Virus record (IMG/VR): IMGVR_UViG_3300005805_000056
Location: 29,637 to 93,636 of that record
Length of the DNA stretch: 64,000 nt
Source: a virus
Direction: 5' to 3' (one strand)
Under the pieces are notes generated by a model. It had not been told where the DNA came from and did no database searches. It saw only the letters and a list, made by a program, of their open reading frames with translations. Shown here piece by piece: positions 1,055 through 61,300 of the stretch. The position numbers and the translations under genes are program-made. Each line of letters starts with the position of its first letter. The first letter of the stretch is position 1.

Positions 1055-1897
1055 GAATTCGGTCTGAATGCCAGCTTCATTCATAGAATCTGTCATTCTA
1101 TTTCTTACTAAGGAAAAACCAAGGTATGGACTTGTAAATGGGTAGCGCTTAGACTTTTCTCTCATGGTTAAGCTCGCCACTCTGTCTAACTCTGGCTTTT
1201 CAGCCTGTGATATTGTTGAGTTAACCTCCTGATGTTTAAGCACTGGGATTGATGGATTGATGTCCACACAATACTGCTGTATGCCCATGATGCTTTGGTG
1301 TCCAGCATAGCGAGCTCTTATGGTATAGTCACAGTGTTCCTCACCAAATCGGCCAAATTGAGGATCAAAATAACCAATACTTTCCACGAGCTTTCTCGTG
1401 ATTGACATCATCATGCCAGTCATTCTGGAAAGCTTTTTAAGAGCAAATCCCCTATAGATCACAGGAGTGCACTTGTACTGTGTGCTTGTGAAGTCACAGA
1501 AACAAAAAAGCTCAATCTGGGTTCCATCATGAGCATCTCTATAAGCTTTGGCTGCATTTCCAACAAACTCAATATCATCATTGCACAGCAGCAAATGATC
1601 GGCTGTGGTCTCCTCCATGAACCACTTAAGTGCTCTATTGCTGTTGCCAGCAACACCCAGATTGTCTGTTCCTAGAAATGCTTGTACAGTTCCACCACCA
1701 AGAATGTGCTGTGTAGCCATCAGATCTGGTCTTGGTATCTTAGGTAAGGTGGAATTGAGCCAAAAACGAGTGGTGTCCTGCTGTCCACAGTCCTCAAAAA
1801 TAGCTATGTCTTTGACTTTGTTTTGATTCATGATGCTTTCAAGAATCTTTTGCAAGGCCGGAAGACGATTGTAAGTCAGAATGGCAATAGCAGTCAT
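1031..1897 (-). CDS. GT2-family glycosyltransferase
   Basis: IAILTYNR, GVAGNSN, LLLCNDD (DxD-like), IGYFDPQFGRFGEEHCDYTIR. Confidence 0.8.
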   Translation of the reverse strand: MTAIAILTYNRLPALQKILESIMNQNKVKDIAIFEDCGQQDTTRFWLNSTLPKIPRPDLMATQHILGGGTVQAFLGTDNLGVAGNSNRALKWFMEETTADHLLLCNDDIEFVGNAAKAYRDAHDGTQIELFCFCDFTSTQYKCTPVIYRGFALKKLSRMTGMMMSITRKLVESIGYFDPQFGRFGEEHCDYTIRARYAGHQSIMGIQQYCVDINPSIPVLKHQEVNSTISQAEKPELDRVASLTMREKSKRYPFTSPYLGFSLVRNRMTDSMNEAGIQTEFLLGHTSI

Positions 1898-1904
1898 GTG
1901 CTCA

Positions 1905-1909
1905 AGAAC
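1905..1909 (-). promoter_or_regulatory. GTTCT-class putative promoter
   Basis: GTTCTTGAG; GTTCT core 7 nt before ATG 1897. Confidence 0.55.
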
Positions 1910-1920
1910 TTGTATCTAGA

Positions 1921-2211
1921 TTGATGTCGAATCAGCCACCTATGGTTGAACCTCTGCCCGTTCAACCATCACAACCTCTTACTATTGAGCTGAGAAGAGA
2001 ACCGGGCCTAGACTGGTTTGTGCTTAATGTTAGTGATGGCTCATCAGAGGAATTGGATCCAGAAGATGCCCGTAGTTGGTTTAGAATGCGTGGGGCCAAT
2101 ATGGACGCAGTTGAAAAGGCGTTAGACTACTGTTGGAACTTCTATAATGCAACAATTGTAATCAAGAACCCAAAGACGCCCAAGCGCTCACCATTAGAGC
2201 CATTGGTGTAA
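1921..2211 (+). CDS. Hypothetical protein
   Basis: 96-aa ORF filling the gap before the protease; no motif recognised. Confidence 0.6.
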   Translation: MMSNQPPMVEPLPVQPSQPLTIELRREPGLDWFVLNVSDGSSEELDPEDARSWFRMRGANMDAVEKALDYCWNFYNATIVIKNPKTPKRSPLEPLV

Positions 2212-2300
2212 TGTCCGAAGATTAGCTTTGAAGTTCAATCATTTTAGCGCTGATAGAGATAAAACGTCTGAGTCATCGTTTACACCCTGGCTTTTAATAC

Positions 2301-3857
2301 GTGGCAAAGCAATACCTTGTTGATTCATGTGATTTCATCATTGATAGACAGAAAGGTCTAGTCAATGAAGATCTCGGTGGTGGCTTTAAGGCCACAAAGG
2401 CCATAGGTCGCCTTGGCTTTTGTGACGAAGTCAATGGTAATCGCCGAATCTATACGAGAAAAGTTTGGGAGGCCAACTTTAAGGATGGAAGTCTTCTTCG
2501 TAAGCGTTTGGCTGAGAATAAGACTTTCGGTCTTCTTGAGCATCCATCTGATGGTCAGGTTACATTGCTCAGCCCAATCAGCCACATCGTTACATCCGCT
2601 CAGCTCAATGAGGACGGATCTATAACGGGTGAACTAGTATTCCTTGACACAGCTGAAGGCCGCAAGATGCAAGCGTTGATTGCGGCTGGCTACAACCCAA
2701 CAGTCTCAAGCAGAGGCTATGGTAGCCTGGTTAAAAATTCAGAGGGTATTGACATAGTCCAAGAAGACTATATTTGCGAAGGCTGGGACGTTGTAATGAC
2801 TCCCAGCTTTTCTAATGCCGTAGTTGAGCCAGTCGGTGAATCCAAGATTTCGAAGCGCTCCGTTACTACTGTAACAGAGAGCTCGATTCAGGGAGCCAAA
2901 ACTCCAGTAGCTAAACAAACACCAAAAAATACCATGGACGCGAATCAAATTCGTCAGTCATTGCAGTCATTCGCGGGCCTGGAAGTCAGCAAGCTGACTC
3001 CACAACGGTACGCTGAAGGCATGCGCCAGATGGAAACTCTCCATCAGCATGTTGAGGCTTGGTGCAGTGAGGATACAGCTAATCGTCGTTGGGACGGAAC
3101 ACGTCTCCACGAAGAGATTACAGCCATCCAGAATACCTGGAGCTCGGCTATTGCTGCCCCCACTGCCCAAGTTGAGCGTCTCAGCGTGGAGAAGCAGAAG
3201 CTGCTTTCAGTCACCGAGAAGATCGTTCAAACCGGCGTGACCTTGAAGAACAAACTCAAGGAATCGCTTGACGCCAACACTAAGTTGATGGAGGTCAACC
3301 AACGTAACCTTGCCCGCGGCCGCGCCTGGAAGCAATTTGCTGAAAGCGTTCAAGCTGACCAGGGTACGCTGAATGAGAAGTATGATGTTGCTACCACTGC
3401 GCTGGAGATTCTGGCCAAGCGGTACAAGTCACTTCAGGCCGAGAGCAACGACTCTGTCGTTCGCCTTGGTCGTCGAGTTCTCGAGCTTGAGTTTTCTGAT
3501 AAGCTCAAGACCGATACTGATTTTGCGGCTAAGTTGAAGGAAGCTAAGACTCCAGAGGCTCTTGCCTCTCTGCGTGAGTCTATCCAGCCAGCTAAGAAGG
3601 CTGAAGCTCCTAAGGCTGCCGCGGTTGGAACCCCAGCGGCTTCAACAACCACTGTCCCTGCGACGAATGAGTCTAAGGAGAATGTTGAAACCAAGGCCAC
3701 TATTACTGAGGCCAAGGTTGAGACTTCAACCCCAGTCACTGAGTCAAAGGACACGGGCAAGCTCGGTACCATTGTGGTTCCGGTTGGCAATCCCCGTAAC
3801 ATTAGTGAGAGTATTGCCATTGCCCGTCGTCTCTCGACCTCGGGTTCACAACAATAA
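2301..3857 (+). CDS. Prohead protease (T4 gp21-like) fused to coiled-coil scaffold (gp22-like)
   Basis: NGNRRIY, GLLEHP, VSSRGYGSL, WDVVMTPSFSNA, followed by a coiled-coil region rich in xTES/LxE sites; lies directly before the capsid gene. Confidence 0.88.
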   Translation: MAKQYLVDSCDFIIDRQKGLVNEDLGGGFKATKAIGRLGFCDEVNGNRRIYTRKVWEANFKDGSLLRKRLAENKTFGLLEHPSDGQVTLLSPISHIVTSAQLNEDGSITGELVFLDTAEGRKMQALIAAGYNPTVSSRGYGSLVKNSEGIDIVQEDYICEGWDVVMTPSFSNAVVEPVGESKISKRSVTTVTESSIQGAKTPVAKQTPKNTMDANQIRQSLQSFAGLEVSKLTPQRYAEGMRQMETLHQHVEAWCSEDTANRRWDGTRLHEEITAIQNTWSSAIAAPTAQVERLSVEKQKLLSVTEKIVQTGVTLKNKLKESLDANTKLMEVNQRNLARGRAWKQFAESVQADQGTLNEKYDVATTALEILAKRYKSLQAESNDSVVRLGRRVLELEFSDKLKTDTDFAAKLKEAKTPEALASLRESIQPAKKAEAPKAAAVGTPAASTTTVPATNESKENVETKATITEAKVETSTPVTESKDTGKLGTIVVPVGNPRNISESIAIARRLSTSGSQQ

Positions 3858-3875
3858 CAACAACATCAATAAGAT

Positions 3876-5327
3876 ATGGTCATCATTGCACCTAGTGGCC
3901 GCCCTGAGCTGGCCACAGAAGGCGGTGGCGTAACACGCTTCACCGAAATCTATGAGTGGGGCAAGCGCCTGGCGGATACTGACGTCGGAGTAGCAGAGGG
4001 GTCTGATCGTGGACTCTGGGAAGCTCTCGGATGGAAGCAGTTCGTCTCGCACATGCCGGAGTACAAGCGGCCCATCGCCGCTATCATGCTCGAAAACTGC
4101 CGTCGTAAGTTCGGTCGCCTCGATGAGGTTACCCGTACTTCCAACCTCGGCACTTTCGACAAGTGGATCTTCCCAGTCATCTCCAACATGGCTGAGAATG
4201 ATGTCATCGACCAGCTCGTCGCCCTCCAGCCCATGGCTGGTCCGGTGTCCCAGATCGTCTACCTCGACATCATCACTGGTCGTCGTAAGGGTCAGACTCC
4301 TAAGGGTGCTCCGATGTGGCGCGCTCTCGGTGGTGCGGTTGACCGCGATGACGATAGCTCTGAGCTCGTTTCTAACGAGACTGGTGCTCTCGCTGGTGGC
4401 GCTGCTACCCTCGAGTGGACTCCGCTCCGTCCTGGCACTATCCAGCTGACGATCGGCAATGACACGACCACTGATGACGGCAACGGTGCGATTATCGCCA
4501 CCGGCGCTATCACAGGTGGTACTGTGAACTACGTGAACGGTGCCTTCACTGTCACCGGCGTTTCCTCCACTGCTTCGTACTCGGTTACCTACCAGTTCAA
4601 CTCGGAAGGTAATCAGTCGATCATGGACTACGAGGTCAAGATCAGCTCCACCCCTGTCACTGCGCAGGTAATGAAGCTGAAGGCCGTGTGGTCCGAGGAA
4701 GCTGATCAGAACCTCTCCGCGATGTACAACATCCGCGCTGAGTCGATTCTGCTCAACGCCATCACCAACGCGCTTCAGTATCAGAAGCATCGTCAGGTCA
4801 TCTTCGACCTGCGTGCCCGTGCTGACGCTGGTTTCGTTACCTGGGATGCTACGCCTCCCTCGAACGTCAACTACCAGACCCACAAGTACTCGTTCATTGA
4901 TGCTATGGAGACTGCCTCCAACTTCATCTTTGGTTCGACGAACATGGTTGCTGGTAACTGGGCGCTGCTCGGCCTCCAGTCCGCCACCGTTGTTGCCACG
5001 CTGCCGCACTTCGTGCCGCGTAACAACCGCGTTGAGATGCAGGGTATCACCTACATCGGTGACCTCGGCAACAAGAAGATCTTCGCTGATCCTCACTATC
5101 CGACCAACGAGTTCCTCGTTGGCCACAAGGGTGACCAGTTCCTCCGTACCGGCTACGTCCTAGCTGAGTACCAGAAGCTGTACACCACCCCTGATATCAT
5201 GCTGCCTGACTTCCTCCATCAACGGGGCTTCGCGACCAGCTTCGCGAAGAAGATGATCAACTCGAAGTTCTACGCCCGCGGCATTGTGCAAAATGCTCCG
5301 AGCTCCTTCGGTCCAGTCATCGGCTAA
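3876..5327 (+). CDS. Major capsid protein (T4 gp23-like, HK97 fold)
   Basis: AIMLEN, LVALQPMAGPVSQIVYL, KLKAVWSEEADQNL; very strong codon bias; followed by a terminator. Confidence 0.93.
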   Translation: MVIIAPSGRPELATEGGGVTRFTEIYEWGKRLADTDVGVAEGSDRGLWEALGWKQFVSHMPEYKRPIAAIMLENCRRKFGRLDEVTRTSNLGTFDKWIFPVISNMAENDVIDQLVALQPMAGPVSQIVYLDIITGRRKGQTPKGAPMWRALGGAVDRDDDSSELVSNETGALAGGAATLEWTPLRPGTIQLTIGNDTTTDDGNGAIIATGAITGGTVNYVNGAFTVTGVSSTASYSVTYQFNSEGNQSIMDYEVKISSTPVTAQVMKLKAVWSEEADQNLSAMYNIRAESILLNAITNALQYQKHRQVIFDLRARADAGFVTWDATPPSNVNYQTHKYSFIDAMETASNFIFGSTNMVAGNWALLGLQSATVVATLPHFVPRNNRVEMQGITYIGDLGNKKIFADPHYPTNEFLVGHKGDQFLRTGYVLAEYQKLYTTPDIMLPDFLHQRGFATSFAKKMINSKFYARGIVQNAPSSFGPVIG

Positions 5328-5342: not shown

Positions 5343-5376
5343 AAAACCCACCTGGAGAAATCCAGGTGGGTTTTTT
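5343..5376. terminator. Bidirectional intrinsic terminator
   Basis: AAAA-CCCACCTGGA-GAAA-TCCAGGTGGG-TTTTTT between convergent genes. Confidence 0.9.
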
Positions 5377-6050
5377 CATGCACGAATAACCTTACTTGCC
5401 TTGATGGAATAGTCCGTCGTTCCGTCTTTTCTCTTATATTTTACAACTTTACCCAATACGTAGACTTTTCTCCCTCCAATCAGTGGTTCAGCAACTGACC
5501 AAGCATTTGTATAGTTCACCCACACATGGTCAGCCAAAGTTGTCTTCTTGCCAAATAGCTTTACTTGACTCAACATCAAACTTTTATTTGATGTTCCGAT
5601 GAATCCTCGATGGCCGATGGTCACCGAGAAAAGGATCTTCTCTTGGCGCCCGCACAGCAGGGCCAACAACCTAGACGTATTTTTCTCAAAAAATTCCCTG
5701 AAATTTTTGACATTGTCCAGTTCAACTACTTTAACATCTTTTTCATGCTCAAAGTACTGAAGCAATGTTGTTCCACTCAGATATTTTCTGACAAGAAGAT
5801 AGTGCTCATAAGCATCTAAGCATTCATCGTACTGATCACAAAGCCAATTGTTCGTAGTAACATCGTCTAGAGAATTTAAGCCACAATCATTTCTGATACA
5901 GGGTGGCCAGAATGGACCCCTAATTAGGGCATACATTGTTCCTAAACGACTTGGAGCCGATTCAACCTTTCTGACCCAAATTTCAGGTTTATTTTTTCTA
6001 CCGACATCCTTAATCGATGTCACCAGGTTATGTCCATATGAGTTATTCAT
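5376..6050 (-). CDS. Hypothetical protein with possible C-terminal OB-like domain
   Basis: 224-aa ORF, lower GC; ADHVWV...GKVVKYKRKDGTTDY. Confidence 0.6.
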   Translation of the reverse strand: MNNSYGHNLVTSIKDVGRKNKPEIWVRKVESAPSRLGTMYALIRGPFWPPCIRNDCGLNSLDDVTTNNWLCDQYDECLDAYEHYLLVRKYLSGTTLLQYFEHEKDVKVVELDNVKNFREFFEKNTSRLLALLCGRQEKILFSVTIGHRGFIGTSNKSLMLSQVKLFGKKTTLADHVWVNYTNAWSVAEPLIGGRKVYVLGKVVKYKRKDGTTDYSIKASKVIRA

Positions 6051-6058: not shown

Positions 6059-6087
6059 AGTGTACTCACCTCACCCTAAATTGTAAA
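6059..6087 (-). promoter_or_regulatory. Sigma70-type promoter (probably early, leaderless)
   Basis: TTTACA-N17-TACACT ending 8 nt before ATG 6050. Confidence 0.65.
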
Positions 6088-6095: not shown

Positions 6096-6779
6096 ATGGA
6101 AAGTATCAAGACGAAGGTAAAAGCTAAGAAGCTCGTTGACTTTGAGAGCTTGGACGAGATGGCTCTTCACGCCTGGTTAATCGTCCACGAGCACTGCCGT
6201 AAGGAGTTTTATGACAGCTGGAACTCAATTAGCTTGGCGTCTGTGGACGTGATCTCTGAGGAGTTTTTCTTTAGAAACTACCTCTGGTGCGTCTATGTCA
6301 GTGGTTTCTCAGCCAAGGCCGTGACAGCCAACTATGACAAACTTCTTGTGGCCCATAACCTGGTCGATGGCCGTGGACGCTTTGTCCCGTCAGAGATTGC
6401 CAGTCCTCCGGACAAAGATCAAGTCTTTAAGATCTGGCGAAACCATGCAAAGTTCAACGCCATCTTTAAGACCAGAGCTGAGGTAAGGGAGGGCTGGTCT
6501 CCTTTTAGAAAACGCTATCTGGAGGACAGAGATCCATTGGCCATACAAAACATCGCCTTCATGGGTCCAGCGCTCTCCATGCACCTTGCACGTAATCTGG
6601 GAGCTGTCCAATTGGTAAAGCCTGATGTGCACCTTGTTAGGCTGGCCAAGAAGTTTGGATTTGATACAGCCCACAACCTTTGTCTGGGTGCTCGAGATGC
6701 TTGTCCTCGCATGGCTGACTGGCCACTTGGCAAAGTAGATTTGCTACTCTGGTACGCTGCTGCGACGATACGTAGTTAG
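6096..6779 (+). CDS. HhH-GPD DNA glycosylase-fold protein
   Basis: IAFMGPALSMHLARNLG (HhH-like), KPDVHLVRLA, GKVDLLLW. Confidence 0.6.
   Translation: MESIKTKVKAKKLVDFESLDEMALHAWLIVHEHCRKEFYDSWNSISLASVDVISEEFFFRNYLWCVYVSGFSAKAVTANYDKLLVAHNLVDGRGRFVPSEIASPPDKDQVFKIWRNHAKFNAIFKTRAEVREGWSPFRKRYLEDRDPLAIQNIAFMGPALSMHLARNLGAVQLVKPDVHLVRLAKKFGFDTAHNLCLGARDACPRMADWPLGKVDLLLWYAAATIRS
6773..6778 (+). promoter_or_regulatory. TAGTTA-class putative late promoter
   Basis: GTAGTTAG; TAGTTA core 4 nt before GTG 6783. Confidence 0.55.
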
Positions 6780-6782: not shown

Positions 6783-9644
6783 GTGACGACAGCAGCCGCT
6801 CAAGCACAAGCACTAGCCAACGGGTTGGCCCAATCAAGTAAGTCAATAGCTGACAGTACAAAGGTTACTAGTCAGTACTTTGACTCTTTTGTCAAGCGCA
6901 TCAAGGAAGCTGATGCGGTTTTCAACAGTGGTCAGATGTCTAAGACTCTGAAGGCAATCACTGGTGATGCTAGAACCGCTGATCAAGCCAGAGTGGCAGT
7001 TAGTCGTCTGTCCAACGAATACCGTCAGCTTCAAGCCTCAGTGACAGGTGGGTTGGGCACTGCCATCACCGAGATTGGAAATGCCTTGGCCCAAGCTACA
7101 GCCGCTGGTATTCCTCTAGGCATATCTCAAATCAATGACGAGCTTACCCGGCTAAATGAGATTGCTGGACAGTCTGCTTTGTCTGGTGCAGTTTCTCAAG
7201 CCTTCAAGCTTAAGACTCTGATCACGTCAGCTCTCACTGACACCAGTGATTCAGCTGGTCAGAAGATCAAGAATATCGCGGCTGGCACCCTTAAAAACTT
7301 TGAGTCCTACGAGACAGGCCTCAATGCATTGAGCATTACCATCAGCGCGGATGCTCAAACCATAGCCACTGACATCAAGAAGTTGTCCGACACCATCAGA
7401 ACCACTCAAGCATCTGATGTTGAGAATCTTCGAGCCATGTTGCTCAATCTTGGCGCTCTTCAAGAGAGCTTCCAAGCTGAGATGGACAAGAGCAAGACTG
7501 TTGTCACCCAGTTCACCAGCCAAGCTGATTTGGTTGCGGCAAGTCTGCAACGCATACGAAATGCTGACCCAACAGGAGCACTCACTTCGACAATATCTGC
7601 ATTTGAGGACTTAGTACAGAGGGCCAGGGATACATCTAAACAACTTCTTACAAATGTTGCTGAAGACAGATTTAAGCAACTGCGTGACATCAGTTTCAGA
7701 CTTATTGGTGAGATCAAGGACTCGTTGTTTGGCCAGTTGTATGGTCTTGTAAAGACACAGCTTGACGCCTTTCAGAAAGGCTTTGAAACGTTTGCCAGCA
7801 ACATTGGCACACGCAGTGTTCTCTTCGCTCAAGGTTTGAAAGCTGCCTTTCAAGGTGGTGGCACAGTGGCTACCACTGTTGAAGCCATGGCCACACTCGG
7901 CAGACTCAATTTCAAGGCTGGAACGGACGAGTTAACCACATCTGCAGCCATGGCCGTGAAGATGGCTGAGGCTCTTGGAATCAGTGGTGACAATGCTGCA
8001 CACCTGGTCTTCTACACCAAGCAAGCTGGTGTGGATCTGGTTCAGATGGGTGACACACTGGCCACCATTCGTGAGAACACTCGTCTCACAGCTGATGAGT
8101 TTGGCCGATTCACTAAGGACCTGGGCGAAGCCCTGATGATCATGGGCAACATCAGCAACTATGCCCAAGTGATCAAGAGCACACTAAAGATTGATGATGC
8201 TCTTCGTCAATTCACTGGCATGTCTGGTGACTACGTCCAGTTTTTCAAGCGCATGGCCACAACGACTGAGGGCATGCAGACAGCCATGGCGTTGGGCATC
8301 AATCCTGAGAATCTTGGCAACGACACTGAGCAGAGACGATTCATCGCCAGCATGGGTGCCTATGTGGACCAGCTGACAAAGAATCAGCCAATGCTCCAGC
8401 AGATTGCTATACTCGAGGATCTTTCAGTTCAAACTGGCCTGTCTGTGGTGTCACTTCGTAATCTGTCTAAGGCCGCTGCAGAGTTGAACTCTCGTACAGA
8501 GGATTCTATATCGTTAGATCAACGATATGCCAACGAAGTAGCAAACCTTGGAAAGTCTGTTTCATCCATATCTGAGAGCCTCCAGAAGCTGCTATCCGCT
8601 GGAATGTGGCCATTTGTTGCTGTGCTTTCACAGGTGGCTGGTGGTGTTGCTTGGCTGCTTGAAAAACTCAGAGGTCTTCCGTTGGTGTTTGAGACACTCG
8701 CCGTTGTTGGTGGTGTTGTGGCCGTGGGTGCTTTAGGACTACTAATCAACAGCATCAAGCAGTTGGCCATAGTTGCTCCTATTGCCATGGCTGGACTTCG
8801 GGCCTTAAATGCTCAACTACTGGCCACTAGCACTGGAGCAGCTGTTTCAGGAGCTATGTCAGCTGCGGGTGCTGGAGCTGGCGCAGCAGGTGCTGCGGCC
8901 TCCACAGGCATAGGGGCCATGCTAATGAATTTTCTGGTTAACCCTCTTAAGGTAGTTTTCGTGCCTGTGGCCAAAGCCTTACTAGCCTTAGTCAATCCTC
9001 TTACACTAGTTGCTGCTGCACTAACCTTAGCTGCGGGTGGAATCTACAAGCTTGTAACTGGAAGAAATCCTGTATCAGATTTAAGAGACGTAATTTCTCA
9101 AGGTAGAGAAAATGATGAAGCCAGAGGCCGTGATGCTGAATCAATCCGAAAGGCCATTTTACGTCGCACATCTGAAGCGCGTGGCGCCTCAATAAGCACT
9201 GCTGAAGGATTAACTGACGCTGAAAGGTTGAAGTCAATCACTGTTGAAGGTGCTGGTGGTCGTTCAACAAGTTTTGGCCAGATGCTTGCCACTCGTGAAA
9301 AAGACATTGCTGAAATGATGAGTGGAGCGAGTGGCGCTCAAACCATATCTGCCGCTCAAGCCGCTGAGTTCAAGAGTGAGTTGGCTCAACGTGATGTTAT
9401 CTACCTTAGAAATGCTATTGCAGCTAAGGAAAGCCAGCTTGTCACTGAGAGTCGTCCTCCTTCTAAGAATGAGACTGATCAGTTGGCCTTGCTAACTGAA
9501 ATGGTTAAGTATCTGGAGAGACAAGTATCGATTTCACAGAATCAAGCTGATGATGCTCGTAAGCAACAAGACGAACGTGACCTCTATGAGCAGATGCAGC
9601 GAATCCAGAGGTACGGTGACTACTCCACACAATCTGCTTTTTAA
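6783..9644 (+). CDS. Tail tape measure protein
   Basis: 953 aa, helical and Ala/Leu-rich, hydrophobic TM-like segments and Gly/Ala stretch in the C-terminal third. Confidence 0.8.
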   Translation: MTTAAAQAQALANGLAQSSKSIADSTKVTSQYFDSFVKRIKEADAVFNSGQMSKTLKAITGDARTADQARVAVSRLSNEYRQLQASVTGGLGTAITEIGNALAQATAAGIPLGISQINDELTRLNEIAGQSALSGAVSQAFKLKTLITSALTDTSDSAGQKIKNIAAGTLKNFESYETGLNALSITISADAQTIATDIKKLSDTIRTTQASDVENLRAMLLNLGALQESFQAEMDKSKTVVTQFTSQADLVAASLQRIRNADPTGALTSTISAFEDLVQRARDTSKQLLTNVAEDRFKQLRDISFRLIGEIKDSLFGQLYGLVKTQLDAFQKGFETFASNIGTRSVLFAQGLKAAFQGGGTVATTVEAMATLGRLNFKAGTDELTTSAAMAVKMAEALGISGDNAAHLVFYTKQAGVDLVQMGDTLATIRENTRLTADEFGRFTKDLGEALMIMGNISNYAQVIKSTLKIDDALRQFTGMSGDYVQFFKRMATTTEGMQTAMALGINPENLGNDTEQRRFIASMGAYVDQLTKNQPMLQQIAILEDLSVQTGLSVVSLRNLSKAAAELNSRTEDSISLDQRYANEVANLGKSVSSISESLQKLLSAGMWPFVAVLSQVAGGVAWLLEKLRGLPLVFETLAVVGGVVAVGALGLLINSIKQLAIVAPIAMAGLRALNAQLLATSTGAAVSGAMSAAGAGAGAAGAAASTGIGAMLMNFLVNPLKVVFVPVAKALLALVNPLTLVAAALTLAAGGIYKLVTGRNPVSDLRDVISQGRENDEARGRDAESIRKAILRRTSEARGASISTAEGLTDAERLKSITVEGAGGRSTSFGQMLATREKDIAEMMSGASGAQTISAAQAAEFKSELAQRDVIYLRNAIAAKESQLVTESRPPSKNETDQLALLTEMVKYLERQVSISQNQADDARKQQDERDLYEQMQRIQRYGDYSTQSAF

Positions 9645-9647: not shown

Positions 9648-10649
9648 ATGCCCGCACAATACCCCATAAGCCAGAAACAAGGCTACATCAGCCCTCCGGT
9701 CAACACGCAACGACCGTTGGACAGACGCCCATCTGTTCTTGGTCGTCTTGTCTCACTGGGCTCTACATACAATGGCGTGGCTGACTACTTGACGAGTAAT
9801 CGAAGCAACGAGGCTTCATCGTCAACGGTTATCAACTTTCCATCGATGCCTGAGATCGTGGAGTTGGCCAGAGAGGCTGACTACCGTCAAACTTCAGCTC
9901 CATACACTCCTGACGGCATACACCTCTACAAGAAAACCAATCCTCTAAAGATTCCAATCTCATTTTCACTACACTACCAGGATCCATTCTGTAGTAAAGG
10001 TGGACTGTCTTTGCTGCTAATGTCAGCCAAGCTTCATTCACTTTTGTTGCCAATAAACAACAGCGCTGATCGCTCCAACATATCTGTTACTGTTGGAAAC
10101 TACTATAACTCTGCGGCTTCTGGCACAACTCATTCTGGTGGAGCTCCAAATCCACCAAAGGATTCATCAGCTGTTGGCACTCCAGCGTCAGTGGGCCAAG
10201 ATGAATCGATTGCTTTTAATGGCAATGCTGGTCAAGCCACAACTGTGTTTCCTCCAGCTTGTCTATTAGACTTGATATCGGTTGGTGATCGTAATGGAGC
10301 CCCTGGAATTCGGTGCTACGGCTATGTCAACAGTGTCAGTGTTAAGCTTAAAGGCCCATGGATGAGAGGTGCTGTGGAATATGGGCCAAATGGAATCAGA
10401 AACGTCCCAACATCTGCGGACTTTTCATTCATTTTCGTACATGCTCCAGGCTTCTCAAACTACTTTGGTGGAGCTGCCACATCTCCATTCCAGCTCAGTG
10501 GTCTCAGTGCTTTTGCCCAAGACGTGCTAGGAAACCTCTACAACACTGTTCCTCTAACTGAAGGTCAGCCACAACTCAACCGATATGTGGGCATTGGTGA
10601 GAATCCTAACAATCTCAATCAAAACACTGTGAGCAACCAGGGCATTTAG
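9648..10649 (+). CDS. Baseplate tube-initiator protein (gp48/P2 gpU/CIS tube-like)
   Basis: Follows the TMP; INFPSMPE..., IPISFSL, PPACLL, GYVNSVSVK, PTSADFSFIF pattern. Confidence 0.6.
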   Translation: MPAQYPISQKQGYISPPVNTQRPLDRRPSVLGRLVSLGSTYNGVADYLTSNRSNEASSSTVINFPSMPEIVELAREADYRQTSAPYTPDGIHLYKKTNPLKIPISFSLHYQDPFCSKGGLSLLLMSAKLHSLLLPINNSADRSNISVTVGNYYNSAASGTTHSGGAPNPPKDSSAVGTPASVGQDESIAFNGNAGQATTVFPPACLLDLISVGDRNGAPGIRCYGYVNSVSVKLKGPWMRGAVEYGPNGIRNVPTSADFSFIFVHAPGFSNYFGGAATSPFQLSGLSAFAQDVLGNLYNTVPLTEGQPQLNRYVGIGENPNNLNQNTVSNQGI

Positions 10650-12583
10650 ACCCACGAGAAGGTTGTGACACCTTCCTTGCTTTTCGTGGCTCTAAGGACA
10701 TGATCAGCATAGGCTGAGACTTCTGGGTGGTGATCAACCACAAAGATCAAGATTCCTAGTCTATTCGCAGTCTCTTTGAGATATGACAGTATGCACTTGC
10801 GAACCTTGGGATCCTGTGAGTTGACCACTTCATCATACCAGCGAAATCCAATACGAGAGGAAACTCGTCCAACTTCAGTAATGGTCTCAGCCACGATGAG
10901 GTTGGTTAGGCCACTCTCACCTTTTGAGTTGCCTGTTACTCTGGAAGCTCCTCGTGAATTCTTCACCTTGATGTTCAGGCAGTTTTTCTCAGCTCCACTG
11001 GTCAACTCTTTGGTTGTCTCATAGGAGATGCCCAGGGTGCCACCAGACATCCGGTGTGACAACGCCATGGACACTTGATTCAGTGGATCCACTGACCTGG
11101 AAAGTACCATGTTTGGTATGCCAGAACTGTTGAAAGCCCCAGACCAATATTCCACTACCTTGCAGAGCTCTTGATTCTCCTCTAGTTCAGCTGTCACATT
11201 GACTAGCTTTTCTTCGTACTCAATTAGACTGCTCTGCTTGGAGTCTAGCACACTTTGGGCCTTGACCACATTAGCATCAGAGGGTCCCTTGCTGAGCATG
11301 GCTACCTGAACGCTTAGGGCCGTGCACTCCTGAGTGGCCTTGGCATCCAGCTTGTCCAAGCCATCAAGCTCCGTTGAGAAGCCTCTGACCTGGTCTTTTA
11401 CATTGAGCTGGCGCTGCTTCTGCTGGTTCTCATTGATCTCATCCTGTTTGGCATCTTCACGGGCCCTGATCTCGGCAACTTGGCCCCTAAGATTCTTGAG
11501 CTTTTCAATGGCCTCACTCAGCCGATTCTCAGCCTTTTCAATGTCAGACTCAGATGGTCCCTTGTCCCATGGCTTCTTACAAGTGGGACACTCCCTGGGC
11601 TTGAGTCGCAGACTCTTCAGGTCCAGATCGGCCTTGTAGTGCTCATTGCTGGCTTGATTCTCAAGCTGAGCTATGGGTTTCATCTCAGCAGAGATCTTGA
11701 GTTTCTCGGCCCTCAGTTTCATATCCTCTGCTTCTAGGGCCTTGTTTTGTTCAGCCAGGTCATCCTCGATCTTCTTGATTTGGGCCTTGATGGACTTACG
11801 CCTCTTGGCTCTCTCATCAATCTGGCCTTTGACCGTCTCAAGCTTAGACTGGGCTTCAGTCAACTGTTGGGCCATGACTTTGGCTTGGTTTTCAAAGGTC
11901 TCCCGTTCACGCTCCAAATTCTCACCAGCCTTAACGATGCCTTGCTTTGTGGTATCAATCATCTCAAGCATGGTCTCTTTGGAGGACTTTTTGGCTGCTA
12001 CGTCACTCTTAAGCTCATTCAGTGTCTTCTTCGCTTTCTCATAATATGAAGCCCATGATGGCTGACCCAACGCAGCCATCATTAGTTCAACTGCTTGAGT
12101 TTGTGAGAGTGAGCTGAAGTCTAGATTGTCTCCGTCAATATAGACAGACCATTTTGCAACCTCTGGAGTGATGCCGAGAGTCTGGCTCAACTCATTTCTA
12201 GTGAGATCCACATGGGATCTTGAAATGACTGTGTCACCTGTCTTAAAACGAAGGCCTTCACCCGTCTTGGACAGGTCTTTGAACTTGTAGCCCATCTCAA
12301 TCACCAGGCCTTTGTCTTGGAAAGACCCCTCAACCCTGACCAACGTATTGCCTTTCTCATTCGTGCTATAATGGCCTAGGGAGGAGTATCTACCCCGGAT
12401 TCCACAGACAGCAATGCTAAGTGCCTCACCAAGACTTGTTTTTCCAGAGCCTATGGATTCAAATTGACTGGACTCATCGACACCTGAGACGAATACCAAT
12501 CCTTGGTCTGGGAACTCAATCTCTTGGTCACGGATCGTCATCCAATTCTTAAGTTGGATTTTCCGAAGCTTGAACTGTGACAT
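10646..12583 (-). CDS. SbcC/Rad50/gp46-like SMC ATPase of a recombination nuclease
   Basis: Walker A GSGKTS, central coiled coil with CPTC zinc hook, SKGE signature, WYDE Walker B, VVDH. Confidence 0.92.
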   Translation of the reverse strand: MSQFKLRKIQLKNWMTIRDQEIEFPDQGLVFVSGVDESSQFESIGSGKTSLGEALSIAVCGIRGRYSSLGHYSTNEKGNTLVRVEGSFQDKGLVIEMGYKFKDLSKTGEGLRFKTGDTVISRSHVDLTRNELSQTLGITPEVAKWSVYIDGDNLDFSSLSQTQAVELMMAALGQPSWASYYEKAKKTLNELKSDVAAKKSSKETMLEMIDTTKQGIVKAGENLERERETFENQAKVMAQQLTEAQSKLETVKGQIDERAKRRKSIKAQIKKIEDDLAEQNKALEAEDMKLRAEKLKISAEMKPIAQLENQASNEHYKADLDLKSLRLKPRECPTCKKPWDKGPSESDIEKAENRLSEAIEKLKNLRGQVAEIRAREDAKQDEINENQQKQRQLNVKDQVRGFSTELDGLDKLDAKATQECTALSVQVAMLSKGPSDANVVKAQSVLDSKQSSLIEYEEKLVNVTAELEENQELCKVVEYWSGAFNSSGIPNMVLSRSVDPLNQVSMALSHRMSGGTLGISYETTKELTSGAEKNCLNIKVKNSRGASRVTGNSKGESGLTNLIVAETITEVGRVSSRIGFRWYDEVVNSQDPKVRKCILSYLKETANRLGILIFVVDHHPEVSAYADHVLRATKSKEGVTTFSWV

Positions 12584-20050: not shown

Positions 20051-20064
20051 TTAGAACAGAATTT

Positions 20065-45997: not shown

Positions 45998-46010
45998 TAA
46001 CTACAGTTCT
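45998..46010. promoter_or_regulatory. Fused divergent promoters TAACTA-CA-GTTCT
   Basis: TAGTTA (minus) 7 nt before ATG 45990 and GTTCT (plus) 7 nt before ATG 46018. Confidence 0.65.
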
Positions 46011-51634: not shown

Positions 51635-51660
51635 GGCCTAACTACTCGCGTAAGTATCTT

Positions 51661-52383
51661 GTGCTGACGACTGAGCAGATTCAATACGCCGTCGATAAAA
51701 AGACGTACCAGTTTCAATTTTGGAAGCTAGTGTGGACAAGCCCGCAGACACATGTTTTTCAAAGTGATGACAACTATGGTCTGCAGCATGTTATCATTAC
51801 GCTCTCAAACAACAAATTTGCCAGGGTTCAAATTGATCTGGGCTACACCACATCATCTTGGTATGATTGTACGTTGGAAGATGTCCAAAATATGGCCTCA
51901 GTTTTCTACCAAAAATGGGGTCCAGATCCTGGTTCAGTCTGGCAAGGCACGGCCTCTCTTAACGGAAACTATGGTCCTATTGGAACCCACGTTGAGATTA
52001 TTGGCACAAAGTTGCTGGGAACCACAATAATGTTTGGTCAAATTGAGGTCACACCAGAGACTATAACTGATAATTTTGTAGCATTTGAAGTGCCTCCAGT
52101 GGCAGATGGAAATTATGTCATAACAATTGATGGCACAGACATTGGCACATTTGGTGTTAGAGAGCCCAACGATACACCACTTATCACCTATGTTGTCCAG
52201 TCAGAGTCACTCTATGTGACTATTGTGGGTGATGGCTTTCACTCCAATGAGACGACAATAGTAATGTTTGGTGTAACATACAATGCTAATGTCATAAAAC
52301 CCACTGAGTGTAACTTCCTTGCAAATGTAGTCATGGGTCCTTTTGTGTTGACTACCCCTCATGGGTCAGTCTCCTATCCCTAA
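51661..52383 (+). CDS. IPT/TIG (Ig-like) domain protein
   Basis: GPIGTHVEIIG, FEVP, VTIVGDGF, LTTPHG repeats. Confidence 0.6.
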   Translation: MLTTEQIQYAVDKKTYQFQFWKLVWTSPQTHVFQSDDNYGLQHVIITLSNNKFARVQIDLGYTTSSWYDCTLEDVQNMASVFYQKWGPDPGSVWQGTASLNGNYGPIGTHVEIIGTKLLGTTIMFGQIEVTPETITDNFVAFEVPPVADGNYVITIDGTDIGTFGVREPNDTPLITYVVQSESLYVTIVGDGFHSNETTIVMFGVTYNANVIKPTECNFLANVVMGPFVLTTPHGSVSYP

Positions 52384-52400
52384 CCAGTAGTTACCTTGCT

Positions 52401-53986: not shown

Positions 53987-54972
53987 ACTGCCACTTCAGC
54001 CTTAATTGTTGGGTGGCTGCTGTAACCAACCAGCTGAATGTCATCAAAATTGAAACTGAAAAGGTCTGTCTTTGCAAGATTCAACGTGACATACGGAGAT
54101 GTGAATGGAGCCCGTGTCAACTGTAGCTTGGCCTGGTCTATGTGGTTTTGGTATAGATGGAGGTCACCATAGGTGTGGATAAACTCACCAGGCACCATTT
54201 CCACACAGTGTGCCATCATCTGAAGGAGCAGAGCGTAGCTGGCGATATTGAATGGCACACCCAGGAAGAGATCACAGCTGCGCTGGTACAGCAAGCAGTT
54301 GAGCTTGCGTCGACCATCTGAGAGCACCTCTGTGTTGAAGTGAAACAGCACATGGCAGGGTGGCAAGGCACAATGATCCACCCAGTAGGGATGCCAAGCA
54401 CTCACAATCATGCGCCTGTCATCCGGGTTGGTCTTAAGCTTGCCAACTACTTTCTTCAGCTGGTCAACAGTGTCAAGAGCATCAAATCCATTAGCTGATG
54501 CAATGGTCTCATAGTCATTGTAGAAGGGGAAAGCCCTCCACATGCTGCCATATGTGCCCATTCCCAAGTCACCCCAACGATTCGCAAAGACTGAGGAATT
54601 TTTGATTTCCTTAATAAAGTTAGACTGAGAAAGTTTTTGCACTGGCACCTTTATCAGGGTGCCAGCTCTTCCCTCAATATCAAACTCAGGAGTGCTTAAG
54701 TAACGCTGGTAGGCCCAATCGTCCCAGATGTGGACGTCATTATCCACCAGGTACTTGATGTTGGTGCTGCCACTGATGAACCAGAGCAGCTCGTGAACAA
54801 TGCCCTTGAAGAAGACCTTCTTGGTAGTCAACAGGGGAAAGCCCTGAGACAAGTCAAATCTGGCTTGGGCTCCAAAGACACCAATGGTGTCCACGCCTGT
54901 CCGATTTTTCTTGGGCTTTCCCTCCTGTAGGACCTTCCTAAGGAGACCCAAGTAGGTCTCGTCATGTATCAT
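53983..54972 (-). CDS. thyA: Thymidylate synthase
   Basis: RTG, FPLLTTKK, ELLWF, DRRMIVSAW, LPPCH, QRSCDLFLGVPFNIASY, GDLHLY. Confidence 0.97.
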   Translation of the reverse strand: MIHDETYLGLLRKVLQEGKPKKNRTGVDTIGVFGAQARFDLSQGFPLLTTKKVFFKGIVHELLWFISGSTNIKYLVDNDVHIWDDWAYQRYLSTPEFDIEGRAGTLIKVPVQKLSQSNFIKEIKNSSVFANRWGDLGMGTYGSMWRAFPFYNDYETIASANGFDALDTVDQLKKVVGKLKTNPDDRRMIVSAWHPYWVDHCALPPCHVLFHFNTEVLSDGRRKLNCLLYQRSCDLFLGVPFNIASYALLLQMMAHCVEMVPGEFIHTYGDLHLYQNHIDQAKLQLTRAPFTSPYVTLNLAKTDLFSFNFDDIQLVGYSSHPTIKAEVAV

Positions 54973-55172
54973 TGGTTAACAACAAGGATGTAGGAATTCT
55001 TCAGTACATCACCCCACAGGAGCAGTGATCCACTTTTCCCCTCACTGATGACATCAAGATTCACAGCAGTGGCCTGGGCCATGAAGTCACGAATCTTTGC
55101 TACGTCTGTGTCAGGATCTGTCTTGATTTCGAAGGCCTTACCGTTTGGCAGATAGATGACATGCTTTGGCAT
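54969..55172 (-). CDS. Small hypothetical protein
   Basis: GTTCT at 55182-86, 9 nt upstream; coupled to thyA. Confidence 0.55.
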   Translation of the reverse strand: MPKHVIYLPNGKAFEIKTDPDTDVAKIRDFMAQATAVNLDVISEGKSGSLLLWGDVLKNSYILVVNQ

Positions 55173-55196
55173 AGGTTACCTAGAACCTATGTGGGG

Positions 55197-58135: not shown

Positions 58136-58137
58136 GG

Positions 58138-58188
58138 AAATTAAAAGCCCAGGACACCCCCGGACCATGGATAGGGGACGTCCTGGGC
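58138..58188 (-). terminator. Intrinsic terminator
   Basis: GCCCAGGACGUCCCC...GGGGGUGUCCUGGGC-UUUU; the G.U pairs form only on the minus strand. Confidence 0.75.
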
Positions 58189-58276
58189 ATGTCAGAAGGT
58201 TGCGGGTCGCTGCGTCAAGTGACGGCTGGGAGAGTTGCCGTTGTCAGGTGACAGTTGCGAGAGGCAAAGTTTCGAC
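58138..58276 (-). ncRNA. Candidate small RNA
   Basis: GTTCTTGG motif (core 58284-88) with no start codon after it; internal hairpins; ends in a 15-bp stem plus UUUUAAUUU. Confidence 0.5.
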
Positions 58277-58301
58277 GTTACCAAGAACTTGTTTCAAAAG
58301 A

Positions 58302-58307
58302 TAGTTA
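58302..58307 (+). promoter_or_regulatory. TAGTTA-class putative late promoter
   Basis: ATAGTTAA; TAGTTA core 6 nt before ATG 58314. Confidence 0.6.
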
Positions 58308-58313
58308 ACTCGT

Positions 58314-61300
58314 ATGGCAGTTTCTGTACTACCAGAGAATTTTTTCGTTGATCTGTTGCCAACGAAAATCATGGAGTTGGACACCACTGGGGTGTTGCAT
58401 GCGACATTGTCTGGATTCCAAGATCGCTCAGACGACATTCGTGCTTACGTTTCATTCATAAACAAGCTCATTGACCCTTTTGCTGGCTATCCCATTGCTG
58501 GAACATGCGTGGCCACAAATTACACAGATGAGTTTGGTCTGAATGTAACACGCACCGTTCTGACATTTGACCTGCAGTCAGATCCAAGCTATCAGGCTTT
58601 TGAGGCTGGTAATCTTACCCAGGACGAGGCCAAAGCCTGGATGGGTGAGGTGCTGTCGATCGATCCAACGGTCATTTCTAGTGTCACCACAACCATAGAT
58701 CCTTTCAAGACTGTCTATGAGCCCATGATTGGCTACCTGGCCAAAAACCTGGGCGTGGTGTTTCCGACATCAAATGCTGATGACCCTAGAAATGCTGAGT
58801 TGGTGGCCAGCCAATTTTCTAGACTTCCCATCAAGGGAACAGCCAAGTCTATTGAGATTGCAGGTCTTATTGCTGGCTTTGATTCAGTCCACGTCAACCC
58901 ACTGTGGGGACGTTTGTCGCCAAGAAATCCAGTAGACATTGGTCTTAGTGTAAACAACCAAGATTTTTCAGCGATTACCTTGGTTGAACCCACGATTGTT
59001 CCAAGTGAGTTTTACGACCCACTAGACTACCGTGACGGACCATTCTACACTTGGTCAACTCGTCTTAGCCTTCTCAACAGCACTAACTTTGTCTCACAGG
59101 CCAACGGGTCAAATCCGTACCTTCGTTGGAAAATTGGTGGTTTGCTCGCCACTAATTTTAGAGGTGTCTATAACACCGCTTCAACCTACAACAAGGGTGA
59201 TATCGTTGTTTCAACGACTGGACGTACCTTTCTTGCTCAGACCACTACAACGTCCATACCACCGACTAGCTTTGTAACTGCTAATTTTCTGATGCCAGAG
59301 ATTGACTCGAGTGTGTCAATCTCTGTTAGCAACTCCTCTTGGATGACAGTTGGTCAGCCTGTTTCAGTCTATGATGCTGGCACACTAGTTGTAGGTTCGA
59401 TCAGTGGAACAACGGTAAACCTCATCAATAAGGGAGCAAATAACAATCTTGCCCCTGGAATAACTGTCAATGCTGGCAGTGTTATCGTTTCACAAGATTC
59501 TTCCATCTGGCTTGAGATAGAGGCCCCTTCTGCTAGCATCTATACTCTCTCAGGTGGTCTTCCAAATGTTGAGTCCTCAGCTGATCTATCATCCACAATA
59601 AAGGTTGAAGGTCTAGCTGAAGGCGAATCCTTCAATGGATTGCAGGTTGTTGTCGAAAATGTCAACAATGTCATCTCAACGATCGAAACCCTGTCAACTG
59701 ACCCATCGACTGTTGTTGTCACAACACTTCAGCCTCATGGTCTGACCACAGGTTCATATGTTTTCATCAGCAACGTATCACCATTTGATTATGTTGGTCT
59801 TTATACTATAACTGTAACGGCGTCTAACAAGTTCACATATAGTCTTCCGTCTAACATTTATGTTGCTGGCGTGGCTGCAGATGGAATCGTACCATACTAT
59901 AGTAATGGTGATTTTGAAGTCACCATTTTTGATCGGTTGTCAAGCATCAAATATAGGACTAGCTACTACAACTTGGTGTTGACTGTTAATGAGTCAACGA
60001 TTCAAGCCAGATCTGTTCCAGTAAAGCCGAACCCTGATGTAATAAAAGGTGTCAATGAGGGTTCACTAACTGCTGTACCACCTTACTTTCCATTTAGTGG
60101 TACAACCGAGGTTGAAGGAAATACGCCACAAGTCAACACAGCATGGTTAAGTACTCTTGCCGCTGAGACTGATTCCATACTCAATTCTGTAAAACCTGCT
60201 ACTCGATACGTTCGTAGTTTTAGCACTGGCGTTCTCTACGAGGATCAAGTTGGATACGCTGAGTACGCCAACCAAACTCTTATCTTTAGTGCAACTTCAC
60301 CGCTTTCTGGCACCATAACGGGCCCAATCTATCCGCGCACGGCCAGAGTCACAATTGTACGTACGCCATCTGTTACGCAGTTTTTTAGAGTAGTGTCTTT
60401 TGGTGTTGATTCGCCCACTATCACAATTAGTCCTGAACTATTGTTGACATTCAACGCAATTGTGGGGACTCAATACAGGATTGATTCAAAAGACAGCTTA
60501 TTCGACCCTTGGTATCCAGCATCACCAGTATTTGTTGCCACTTCATCCGTAGTATATTACCAACTTGGAGTTTATGAGGCAGCTGAATTGGTTGGTCAAT
60601 CAGATGAGAATGACCCAGATCAAGTTTCATTCTCTACAACAGCTACGTTCGGTGTAGTAACTGTAGACCTCAACTACTATTCTGGAGTATTCAGTGGAAC
60701 ACGACCTGCGCAATTTCCTCCTAGCGATTCTGTAATCGCCAATTGGATTCTCACAGACACAGGCACTATTCGAACTGAACCCACAACTGTACAAAAGCAA
60801 GCGGGCACACTTGGATTCTTGCCTAGAGCTGAGGACCAGTTTGGTTATTCGTCTGGCACTGCTGAGTTTGGCAGTCGTCCAACTCAATACCCTGATGTCA
60901 ACGAGTGGACAAGGCCACTGGAGCGTGAAGTTCTTGACAGAGACCTTGAGATTGTTTACGGAAACGAGGAAAAATTCCCTGGAAAATTCATAGCAAGTGC
61001 TGATTCAAACGACGGCGTTACGTACGGACTCTTCCTTGTTCCTGGAATTTTCCCATACCGTTTTAGGTTCAGTGAGTTAGTGGGCAAAAACCCACTTCAG
61101 TCCTTGGCTTACAGTGGAAACAGCCTGTACTATGTGGGAATACGATATGGCCAAGTCATGGCCTGTCCTGAGCGCACATTTTCGCAGTCCATGCAATCTG
61201 GACTCAGTGCTTGGATTCCATTTAATGCCCATCCTGATGATAATCTTCAGATTAACTCAGTGTACCCAACTCTGGGTGTCCTAACAACCACTGGTCTTGT

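Follow-up and report, generated by a model that had tools for sequence, protein, structure and literature searches.

Start-adjacent sequence words in a distant T4-like phage as putative promoters of leaderless or near-leaderless messages

The locus and its gene content

This analysis concerns a set of short sequence words that lie immediately ahead of start codons in a 64,000-nt stretch of viral DNA (hereafter the window), comprising bases 29,637-93,636 of the linear 93,636-bp IMG/VR contig IMGVR_UViG_3300005805_000056, for which CheckV gives a completeness of 41%. Two of these words, TAGTTA and GTTCT, are considered here, together with boxes of the sigma-70 type, as likely promoters from which leaderless or nearly leaderless mRNAs would be made. 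Window coordinates are used throughout, negative values denoting positions upstream of the window on the same contig. Genes were called with a codon-usage scorer of our own making, which gave 101 genes contig-wide, and five starts were corrected after inspection. The virion genes most useful for placing the virus are the following:

2301-3857, gp21-type prohead protease
3876-5327, gp23-type major capsid protein
20065-22500, tail sheath
32455-33492, minus strand, gp5-like baseplate hub
38857-40830, gp20-type portal

The window also houses genes for Rad50/gp46-like and Mre11/gp47-like nucleases, a thymidylate synthase, a carbamoyltransferase and several glycosyltransferases. Because of this gene content (capsid, protease, portal, sheath, hub and the gp46/gp47-like nucleases) the virus is classed, on sequence grounds, as a distant T4-like myovirus. 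The capsid protein shows at most 30% identity to those of cultured relatives, and a nucleotide-level comparison of the sheath gene with GenBank phages gave no relative. Related contigs are 199-238 kb long at 82-98% completeness, and therefore the full genome is probably 200-240 kb. Two relatives are referred to repeatedly below: G006, of 222,710 bp, which is 98% complete and has 53% guanine plus cytosine (GC), and G001, which has a 36% identical sheath protein and 59% GC.

Words ahead of start codons

A first-pass annotation of the window had proposed three distinct start-adjacent signals, and computation bore this out: each TAGTTA, GTTCT, sigma-70-like and variant site that it listed is present at the position and on the strand it gave. 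The exact TAGTTA copies are given below with their distance from the start codon of the open reading frame (ORF) that follows.

6773-6778, plus strand: 4 nt before the GTG of a 953-amino-acid (aa) ORF (6783-9644), overlapping the stop codon of the preceding gene
12586-12591, plus strand: 2 nt before the ATG at 12594 (229-aa ORF), heading a divergent unit across a 10-bp gap; conserved in relatives L005 and L007
17972-17977, plus strand: 4 nt before the GTG of ORF 17982-18557; TAGTTA-N4-GTG is kept by the ortholog in a 36%-identical relative
18898-18903, plus strand: 9 nt before the ATG at 18913 (88-aa ORF); found at 6 nt in the distant relative G001
30895-30900, minus strand: 16 nt before the ATG of ORF 30453-30878; conserved in L005, L007 and L008
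33494-33499, plus strand: 7 nt before the ATG at 33507 (220-aa ORF), divergent from the baseplate-hub gene
45998-46003, minus strand: 7 nt before the ATG of ORF 45613-45990, in a 27-bp intergenic gap where it abuts a divergent GTTCT box
51639-51644, minus strand: 4 nt before the ATG of an AAA+ ATPase gene (50687-51634)
52388-52393, plus strand: 7 nt before the ATG at 52401 (155-aa ORF)
58302-58307, plus strand: 6 nt before the ATG at 58314, which opens an ORF exceeding 1,895 aa and continuing past the contig end

To these the first-pass annotation had added one-mismatch variants, as follows:

20048-20053, plus strand, TAATTA: 11 nt before the sheath ATG at 20065; in G001 an exact TAGTTA stands 16 nt before the sheath start
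22501, plus strand, TACTTA: ahead of the tube gene
31478-31483, minus strand, TATTTA: 5 nt before the ATG of ORF 30906-31472; the G006 ortholog has exact TAGTTA at 7 nt
38258-38263, plus strand, TACTTA: 4 nt before the GTG at 38268; the G006 ortholog has exact TAGTTA-N4-GTG
38841, plus strand, TAGTTT: ahead of the portal gene; a tentative site

The variants at 31478, 38258 and 20048 are thus upheld by exact TAGTTA in orthologs of relatives. The tube variant fared otherwise: it is not conserved even in 84%-identical relatives, more distant relatives have no box there, and it is probably not a true site.

The copies of GTTCT associated with starts are:

1905-1909, minus strand: 7 nt before the ATG of a glycosyltransferase gene (1031-1897)
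12606-12610, minus strand: 22 nt before the ATG of the gp46/Rad50-like gene (10646-12583)
27853-27857, minus strand: 8 nt before the ATG at 27844 of a deoxynucleoside monophosphate (dNMP)/thymidylate-kinase-like gene, which lies in an operon with a dCMP-hydroxymethylase-like gene and the carbamoyltransferase gene
27872-27876, plus strand: 7 nt before the ATG at 27884 (273-aa ORF), divergent from the 27853 box
38251-38255, minus strand: 7 nt before the GTG at 38243 of a NUDIX hydrolase gene, which is followed by the Mre11/gp47-like gene
38825-38829, minus strand: 7 nt before the ATG of an 85-aa ORF (38560-38817)
46006-46010, plus strand: 7 nt before the ATG at 46018 (72-aa ORF, then a heptosyltransferase-like gene)
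55182-55186, minus strand: 9 nt before the ATG of a 67-aa ORF (54969-55172), then thymidylate synthase

Sites of the sigma-70 type are:

6059-6087, minus strand, TTTACA-N17-TACACT: 8 nt before the ATG of ORF 5376-6050
17204-17231, minus strand, TTTACA-N16-TATACT: 7 nt before the ATG of ORF 16456-17196
24472-24500, minus strand, a weaker tgTTTACA followed by TAAAAG/TAATAA: 6-9 nt before the ATG of ORF 23962-24465

Three genes of the window call for separate comment. At the head of the 240-aa ORF at 51661-52383, which diverges from the AAA+ ATPase gene, stands TAAGTA-N4-GTG, possibly a further variant of the late box; this ORF was considered as a sliding clamp, which was not supported, language-model features weakly suggesting an Ig/TIG-like protein instead (score 0.86). 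The long ORF at 58314-63998 has no Pfam match, and the 416-bp gap before it holds a hairpin (gggagagtcatgccgactctcc). None of the three boxes precedes the major capsid gene in the window, in G001 or in G006; the leader of this gene (window 3850-3875) is CA/A-rich, free of any Shine-Dalgarno (SD) sequence and conserved in G001 and G006, an example being caacaataacaacaacatcaataagat before the ATG, and initiation of the most abundant protein may rely on an unstructured leader.

Enrichment in position rather than abundance

The positions of the two words were assessed by Fisher's test over the whole 93.6-kb contig, true ATG/GTG gene starts being compared with all other ATG/GTG triplets, and enrichment at true starts is clear for both. 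TAGTTA lies 2-16 nt upstream of 11 of 95 true starts and of 10 of the 6,690 other triplets (p = 7e-16), while the corresponding figures for GTTCT at 7-9 nt are 10 of 95 and 7 of 6,690 (p = 3e-15); within the window taken by itself, the p values are 4e-15 and 7e-9, respectively. Neither word exceeds chance in total number when judged against dinucleotide-preserving shuffles, the window holding 15 copies of TAGTTA (16.0 +/- 3.9 expected) and six of GTTCT-N7-RTG (6.6 expected), so that the enrichment is one of position and not of abundance. Of the 18 TAGTTA copies on the contig, 12-13 lie 2-22 nt ahead of a start, and the spacing of GTTCT is sharper still, with nine sites at exactly 7 nt against about one at every other spacing. 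The third signal, tgTTTACA-N16/17-(G)GTAYACT, is present at four strong sites on the contig, of which the window contains two, and at each the ATG follows the -10 box by 7-8 nt; a generic sigma-70 scan gave no overall excess of promoter-like sites.

SD sites are not used above background, as had been suggested at first pass: a four-nucleotide SD core occurs at -20 to -5 in 14 of 101 genes, where 14.4 would be expected by chance. Translational coupling of internal genes is also confirmed, there being 45 coupled genes with 27 ATGA overlaps and five one-base overlaps. The statement that most transcription-unit starts carry a motif proved too strong. An exact motif is present at 19 of the 44 uncoupled starts in the window, rising to 25 of 44 when one-mismatch TAnTTA variants are included. 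Overall, a motif is found at 25 of 56 uncoupled starts and at none of the 45 coupled genes; GTTCT before operon-internal genes, which would have favoured a ribosome-binding site, is accordingly not seen.

Both words also tend to be avoided inside genes. Under maximal-order Markov models GTTCT occurs in gene interiors 51 times in the sense orientation (83 expected, p = 1e-4) and 69 times in the antisense orientation (97 expected, p = 2e-3), and the antisense complement of TAGTTA occurs four times (11.8 expected, p = 0.009). The sense-strand depletion of TAGTTA is not significant after correction for lower-order word bias, and TA-rich words are depleted generally, so depletion within genes is only moderate evidence for promoters. 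An apparent TAGTTA depletion under synonymous shuffling was set aside as largely this general TA-rich effect, and the Markov-corrected results were retained.

Other words showed unusual counts in gene interiors. The AT-only palindromes ATTAAT, TTATAA and TTTAAA are absent from those of the contig, where about 20 would be expected from synonymous shuffles; TTTAAA is missing even against a maximal-order Markov expectation of 9.4, and AATATT and GCCGGC are depleted too. The absence of the AT-only palindromes may reflect avoidance of restriction sites or of -10-like TA-rich words. TGGCCA, at 109 copies against 96.8 expected under the maximal-order model, is not significantly over-represented (p = 0.12).

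Conservation and division by gene function

Both words, with their spacings, are kept in relatives whose marker proteins are 36-44% identical and whose GC content ranges from 49 to 61%. In G006, 29 of the 50 TAGTTA copies lie exactly 4 nt before a start, which is ATG in 16 cases and GTG in 13 and never TTG or CTG, and GTTCT-N7/8-start occurs 33 times against approximately one to three times for each other spacing. In G001 there are 11 copies of TAGTTA, all on the coding strand, as compared with five of a control word, and orthologs there retain TAGTTA-N4-GTG. Across nine contigs with 36-44% identical sigma-like genes (described below), the TAGTTA spacing has its mode at 4 nt (10 of 21) and the GTTCT spacing peaks at 7-8 nt (16 sites). 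The gp46-like gene has GTTCT at 22 nt both here and in 81%-identical relatives, and at 8 nt in G006 and G001.

The division of the two words by gene function, as originally put forward, holds both here and in the near-complete relative G006. The genes preceded by GTTCT here include glycosyltransferases, the dNMP kinase, the NUDIX hydrolase, the thymidylate synthase (ThyA) unit and a sigma-like gene, and in G006 they include DNA polymerase, NAD-ligase, a helicase and a ThyA-like gene. TAGTTA is found ahead of genes for a head-tail adaptor, the neck-sheath cluster, and tail/Hoc-like and baseplate-hub proteins. Judged from gene functions only, GTTCT might mark a middle class.

Promoter-like geometry

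The nucleotides that follow TAGTTA are not random. Among 23 sites (12 from the contig and 11 from G001), the fourth nucleotide after the word is a pyrimidine in 22 and the fifth a purine in 22; when purines belonging to start codons are excluded, the purine is still present at 15 of 16 sites by hand count. Bacterial RNA polymerase usually prefers such a pyrimidine-purine pair at -1/+1, and its fixed distance from the box, irrespective of where the start codon falls, supports a promoter. No -35 element accompanies either word, and over the 23 TAGTTA sites the information content is confined to the hexamer and a G at -1. The TAGTTA box is a single element at the -10 position without a conserved -35.

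Sigma-70 promoters of the same genomes supply a useful reference. At four sites on the contig and 25 in G006, TTGACA-like -35 and TATAAT-like -10 hexamers are separated by 16-18 bp; the 25 in G006 have a TG-extended TATAGT -10 box, and in 17 of them this lies exactly 6 nt from the ATG. Judged by this geometry, the sigma-70 class would be leaderless, with the ATG at the usual position of the transcription start, and the 25 start-adjacent promoters of G006 argue that the phage family makes leaderless mRNAs. GTTCT occupies the same place relative to the start as does the sigma-70 -10 box. The first-pass proposal that all the messages are leaderless is therefore sustained by geometry for the sigma-70 class and needs relaxing for the TAGTTA class, where leaders in the window would be 0-12 nt and so not strictly absent.

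The arrangement of neighbouring genes is equally compact. In the window, eight of 12 junctions between divergent genes do not exceed 45 bp, and in relatives L022 (near 2338 and 18605) and L021 (near 11018) there are divergent pairs approximately 13 bp apart with interlocked palindromic boxes such as catGTTCTtagagaacATG, in which each strand reads GTTCT-N7/8-ATG. Such short junctions leave no room for 5' untranslated regions (UTRs). In relative L017, GTTCT-N7-start directly follows terminator-like hairpins, and one such site heads a sigma-like gene.

Transfer RNA genes, as a test of promoters that yield RNA only, were uninformative: a G006 tRNA gene with anticodon CTA has no upstream box. This gene (G006 206066-206140) is of the amber suppressor type and is labelled tRNA-Pyl by ARAGORN. 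On the present contig a tRNA-Ser(TGA) gene (contig 11102-11189, minus strand) lies directly past the stop codon of an uncalled, membrane-like, Cys-rich ORF of about 120 aa, in a 502-bp gap adjoining an early sigma-70 promoter, and TAAGTTA stands 2 nt before the tRNA 5' end. No Rfam families were found in 140 kb of G006.

Candidate sigma-like factors

The first-pass annotation had predicted that two phage-encoded specificity factors would be needed, and two adjacent sigma-like candidate genes do lie just upstream of the window, together spanning contig positions 25299-27834:

-4337 to -3297 (L002:10299-11339), sigma-like ORF 1, 346 aa, preceded by GTTCT-N7-ATG
-3343 to -1802 (L002:11293-12834), sigma-like ORF 2, 513 aa, overlapping ORF 1

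Neither ORF, by its own sequence, has a Pfam, PHROG or PDB match. PF04542 is found neither in the contig (six frames) nor in G006-G008, and because there is no match to Pfam Sigma70_r2 or r4 the ORF 1 protein is called sigma-like and not filed as a member of the family. Its AlphaFold (AF2) model, built from 12 homologs, has a mean predicted local distance difference test (pLDDT) score of 75.5, and all of its top 50 or so Foldseek matches are sigma factors; residues 20-121 superimpose on region 2 of sigmaE bound to -10 DNA (4lup_A) with Z 11.1 and a root-mean-square deviation (rmsd) of 2.2 A over 91 of 91 residues. The C-terminal third matches PHROG 836, 'late transcriptional activator' (Mor-like), in 14 of 14 family members, with a best E value of 2e-10. 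Weak matches to the gp55 PHROG occur in three of the 14 family members (E 0.003-0.009), and the G007 ortholog matches a gp55 profile weakly (E 2e-4); the gp55 profiles phrog_234 and phrog_12791 have no match in the contig or its close relatives. On this model, the ORF 1 product would combine sigma region 2 with a C-terminal, Mor-like late-activator domain in one polypeptide.

The model of ORF 2 (pLDDT 70.8) gives a match to sigma region 4 (3vfz_A; Z 7.9, rmsd 1.9 A, 62 of 62 residues) and one to region 2 at about Z 6, and nearly all of its top 50 matches are sigma factors. Its other features are a Cys-rich linker and, at the C terminus, a YjbR-like domain (Z 9.5). The protein may have the form of an extracytoplasmic-function (ECF)-like factor, with sigma2 and sigma4 domains and a C-terminal extension. 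The two modelled proteins are credible candidates for the factors that would read the phage words. No relative of the sigma-like family turned up in a scan of 185,579 species genomes. The profile of T7-type RNA polymerase (PF00940) matched nothing in three near-complete relatives, but it matched nothing in control genomes either, so that this negative carries no weight. The ORF at 37734-38243 (minus strand), suspected to be gp55 from its T4-like position before the gp47-like gene, is the NUDIX hydrolase.

Interpretation and alternatives

Taken together, these results make it likely that the TAGTTA, GTTCT and sigma-70 boxes are promoters giving leaderless or near-leaderless mRNAs. Uncoupled genes would have promoters so near the start codon that the mRNA begins at the start or a few bases before it. 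In a first class the promoters would be those of host sigma-70, of the form tgTTTACA-N16/17-TAYACT, and the ATG would occupy the usual transcription start. In the second, GTTCT would act as an element confined to the -10 position, exactly 7 (rarely 8-9) nt before ATG or GTG, and would serve genes of replication, nucleotide metabolism and DNA modification. The third would use (G)TAGTTA, again at -10 only and with N3-pyrimidine-purine behind it, the purine being the likely +1, and would serve mainly virion genes; its messages would be leaderless where the start is 4 nt away and would otherwise have leaders of 2-12 nt. The second and third classes would be read by the host RNA polymerase core with phage-encoded sigma-like proteins. 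Downstream genes of each unit would be translated by termination-reinitiation at ATGA or TAATG, and messages beginning at or next to the start codon would need no ribosome-binding site. That such promoters would also leave gene order and strand free to scramble, as suggested at first pass, is speculation. What would distinguish the system overall is the combination of phage-specific, -10-only promoters with leaderless expression, and no published description of these words or of this architecture was found in the literature.

It is possible, although here we stop somewhat short of calling it probable, that the same scheme extends to a whole T4-like clade with genomes of about 200-240 kb and 47-61% GC. 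Its entire expression would then proceed without ribosome-binding sites, from three promoter classes and with new readers, a gp55-like sigma2-Mor fusion and an ECF-like sigma whose C-terminal extension is sensor-like, promoter and translation start being combined in one module of 10-15 bp that permits divergent pairs 13 bp apart.

Several observations weigh against the promoter interpretation. About half of the uncoupled starts have no word at all, among them those of the major capsid, protease and baseplate-hub genes, and the lack of significant sense-strand depletion of TAGTTA has been mentioned above. The spacing of TAGTTA from the start in the window (2-16 nt, mostly 4-9) would fit a ribosome-binding element as well. 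As regards the candidate readers, the Pfam sigma region-2 model misses both proteins and no PDB chain matches them by sequence, hhalign of the sigma-like protein against T4 gp55 alone was negative, and the sigma-domain Z scores of ORF 2 are all below 8. Finally, many of the leaderless candidates start with GTG, a leaderless start that mycobacteria accept (PMC4633059) and E. coli uses poorly.

The most serious alternative is that TAGTTA, GTTCT or both are non-SD ribosome-recruitment signals acting at the RNA level in short 5' UTRs, and only where ribosomes load afresh. Such signals would likewise be confined to uncoupled starts, and the count of 0/45 at coupled genes, taken alone, is compatible with them; the TAGTTA spacing of 4-9 nt resembles that of an SD sequence, and where SD sites are absent another signal might be needed. 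GTAGTTA is moreover complementary to a conserved UAACUAC of 16S rRNA helix 18, a 7-mer match in 1.5 kb of rRNA having about a 9% probability of arising by chance; helix 18 is base-paired within the ribosome, which counts against such a role. We nevertheless regard this explanation as unlikely. The two words sort by gene function, as ribosome signals should not, and GTTCT occupies the -10 position of bona fide sigma-70 promoters of the same genomes. The gp46-like gene keeps GTTCT at 22 nt where its counterparts in G006 and G001 have it at 8, a shift that a promoter tolerates and a ribosome site does not. Further, the pyrimidine-purine pair stays at a fixed distance from TAGTTA wherever the start codon sits, and the words are depleted on the antisense strand too. 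Divergent gaps of 10-45 bp would, with 5' UTRs, push both promoters into the coding sequence of the neighbour, where there is no conserved element.

A second alternative, which appears quite improbable, is that the words are not promoters but operators of a phage regulator, RegA-like in action, at translation-initiation regions or in start-adjacent DNA. T4 RegA represses a set of early mRNAs and controls genes of the replication and nucleotide-metabolism type, which is the kind of gene marked by GTTCT, and the start-adjacent position would suit an operator. This leaves the units without a visible promoter or ribosome site, and it does not account for a geometry identical to that of the sigma-70 -10 box or for the word directly following terminator-like hairpins; the 13-bp divergent junctions leave no room for it, and no RegA-like gene turned up, although no search aimed at RegA was made. 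Least probable is that TAGTTA(A/G) is a two-frame stop cassette (TAG, then TAA or TAG one base on) arising as a by-product of coupling: TAGTTAA or TAGTTAG does account for nine of the 12 start-proximal contig copies and some copies overlap an upstream stop codon, as at 6773, but of the 11 exact copies close to a start, six stand at the head of a divergent unit, where nothing upstream is being translated, the word is invariant although any combination of stops would serve, the next base in G006 is not consistently an A or G followed by a stop, and GTTCT and the pyrimidine-purine signature are left unexplained.

Implications

If the promoter interpretation is correct, this would be the first large phage lineage to rely on leaderless or near-leaderless mRNAs for its early, middle and late genes alike, with two short phage-specific words taking the place of the T4 TATAAATA box. 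It would also illustrate how much T4-type late transcription can change alongside a virion module that is still recognisable. The fusion of sigma2 to a Mor-like domain would be a new architecture among promoter-specificity factors. Gene finders would gain a precise rule for calling starts in an abundant group of uncultured phages, whose hosts would be expected to translate leaderless mRNA efficiently, and synthetic biology would have promoter and start together in one very compact module.

Comparison with known systems

The SPO1 proteins gp28 and gp33/34 are phage sigma proteins that set temporal classes, and promoters of the SPO1 and phiEco32 type are two-part (-35/-10) or longer elements with normal leaders. 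Phage-encoded sigma factors are likewise known from phiEco32 (gp36) and phage 7-11 (PMC8948821). As in these three phages, sigma-family proteins of the present phage would redirect the host core polymerase; the elements here differ in being only 5-7 bp long, confined to -10 and adjacent to the start. In phage Mu the late activators Mor and C are small dimeric proteins, not joined to any other domain, whose binding sites lie upstream of sigma-70 promoters. Members of the sigma-like ORF 1 family resemble them in the match of the C-terminal domain to PHROG 836, but there is no conserved upstream binding site here and this domain is predicted to be fused to a sigma region-2 domain.

In mycobacteria leaderless translation needs an ATG or GTG at the 5' end and nothing further, whereas TTG and CTG fail (PMC4633059). 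The restriction of motif-adjacent starts in G006 to ATG and GTG is in keeping with this, and a -10 box 6-8 nt before an ATG or GTG that serves as transcription start and start codon at once, with no SD sequence, is the arrangement of leaderless genes in Actinobacteria and Deinococcus-Thermus. The present case would differ from those in embracing a whole phage genome and three promoter classes, two of them with words that are not of the sigma-70 type.

T4 late transcription is the closest known system, and the phage described here appears to work in a similar way without being a strict member. In T4 the late box lies about 6 nt before +1, gp33 and the gp45 sliding clamp also take part, and the late mRNAs carry SD leaders; no gp33 or gp45 counterpart was identified on the present, 41%-complete contig. 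T4 late promoters have an 8-bp TATA box about one helical turn before the start, lack -35 conservation and are read by gp55 (PMC2988020). The TAGTTA class shares with them a single short element without a -35, ahead of virion genes of a T4-like myovirus, and a candidate reader that, like gp55, has a predicted sigma region-2-like domain, with weak matches to the gp55 PHROG in its family. It differs in that the word is (G)TAGTTA, in the contig and in all relatives examined, and not TATAAATA; in that this word lies about 5 nt, not 6, before the probable +1; in that the transcripts would be leaderless or nearly so where those of T4 have SD leaders; and in that the candidate factor, at 346 aa with a Mor-like C-terminal domain, is considerably larger than the 185-aa gp55.

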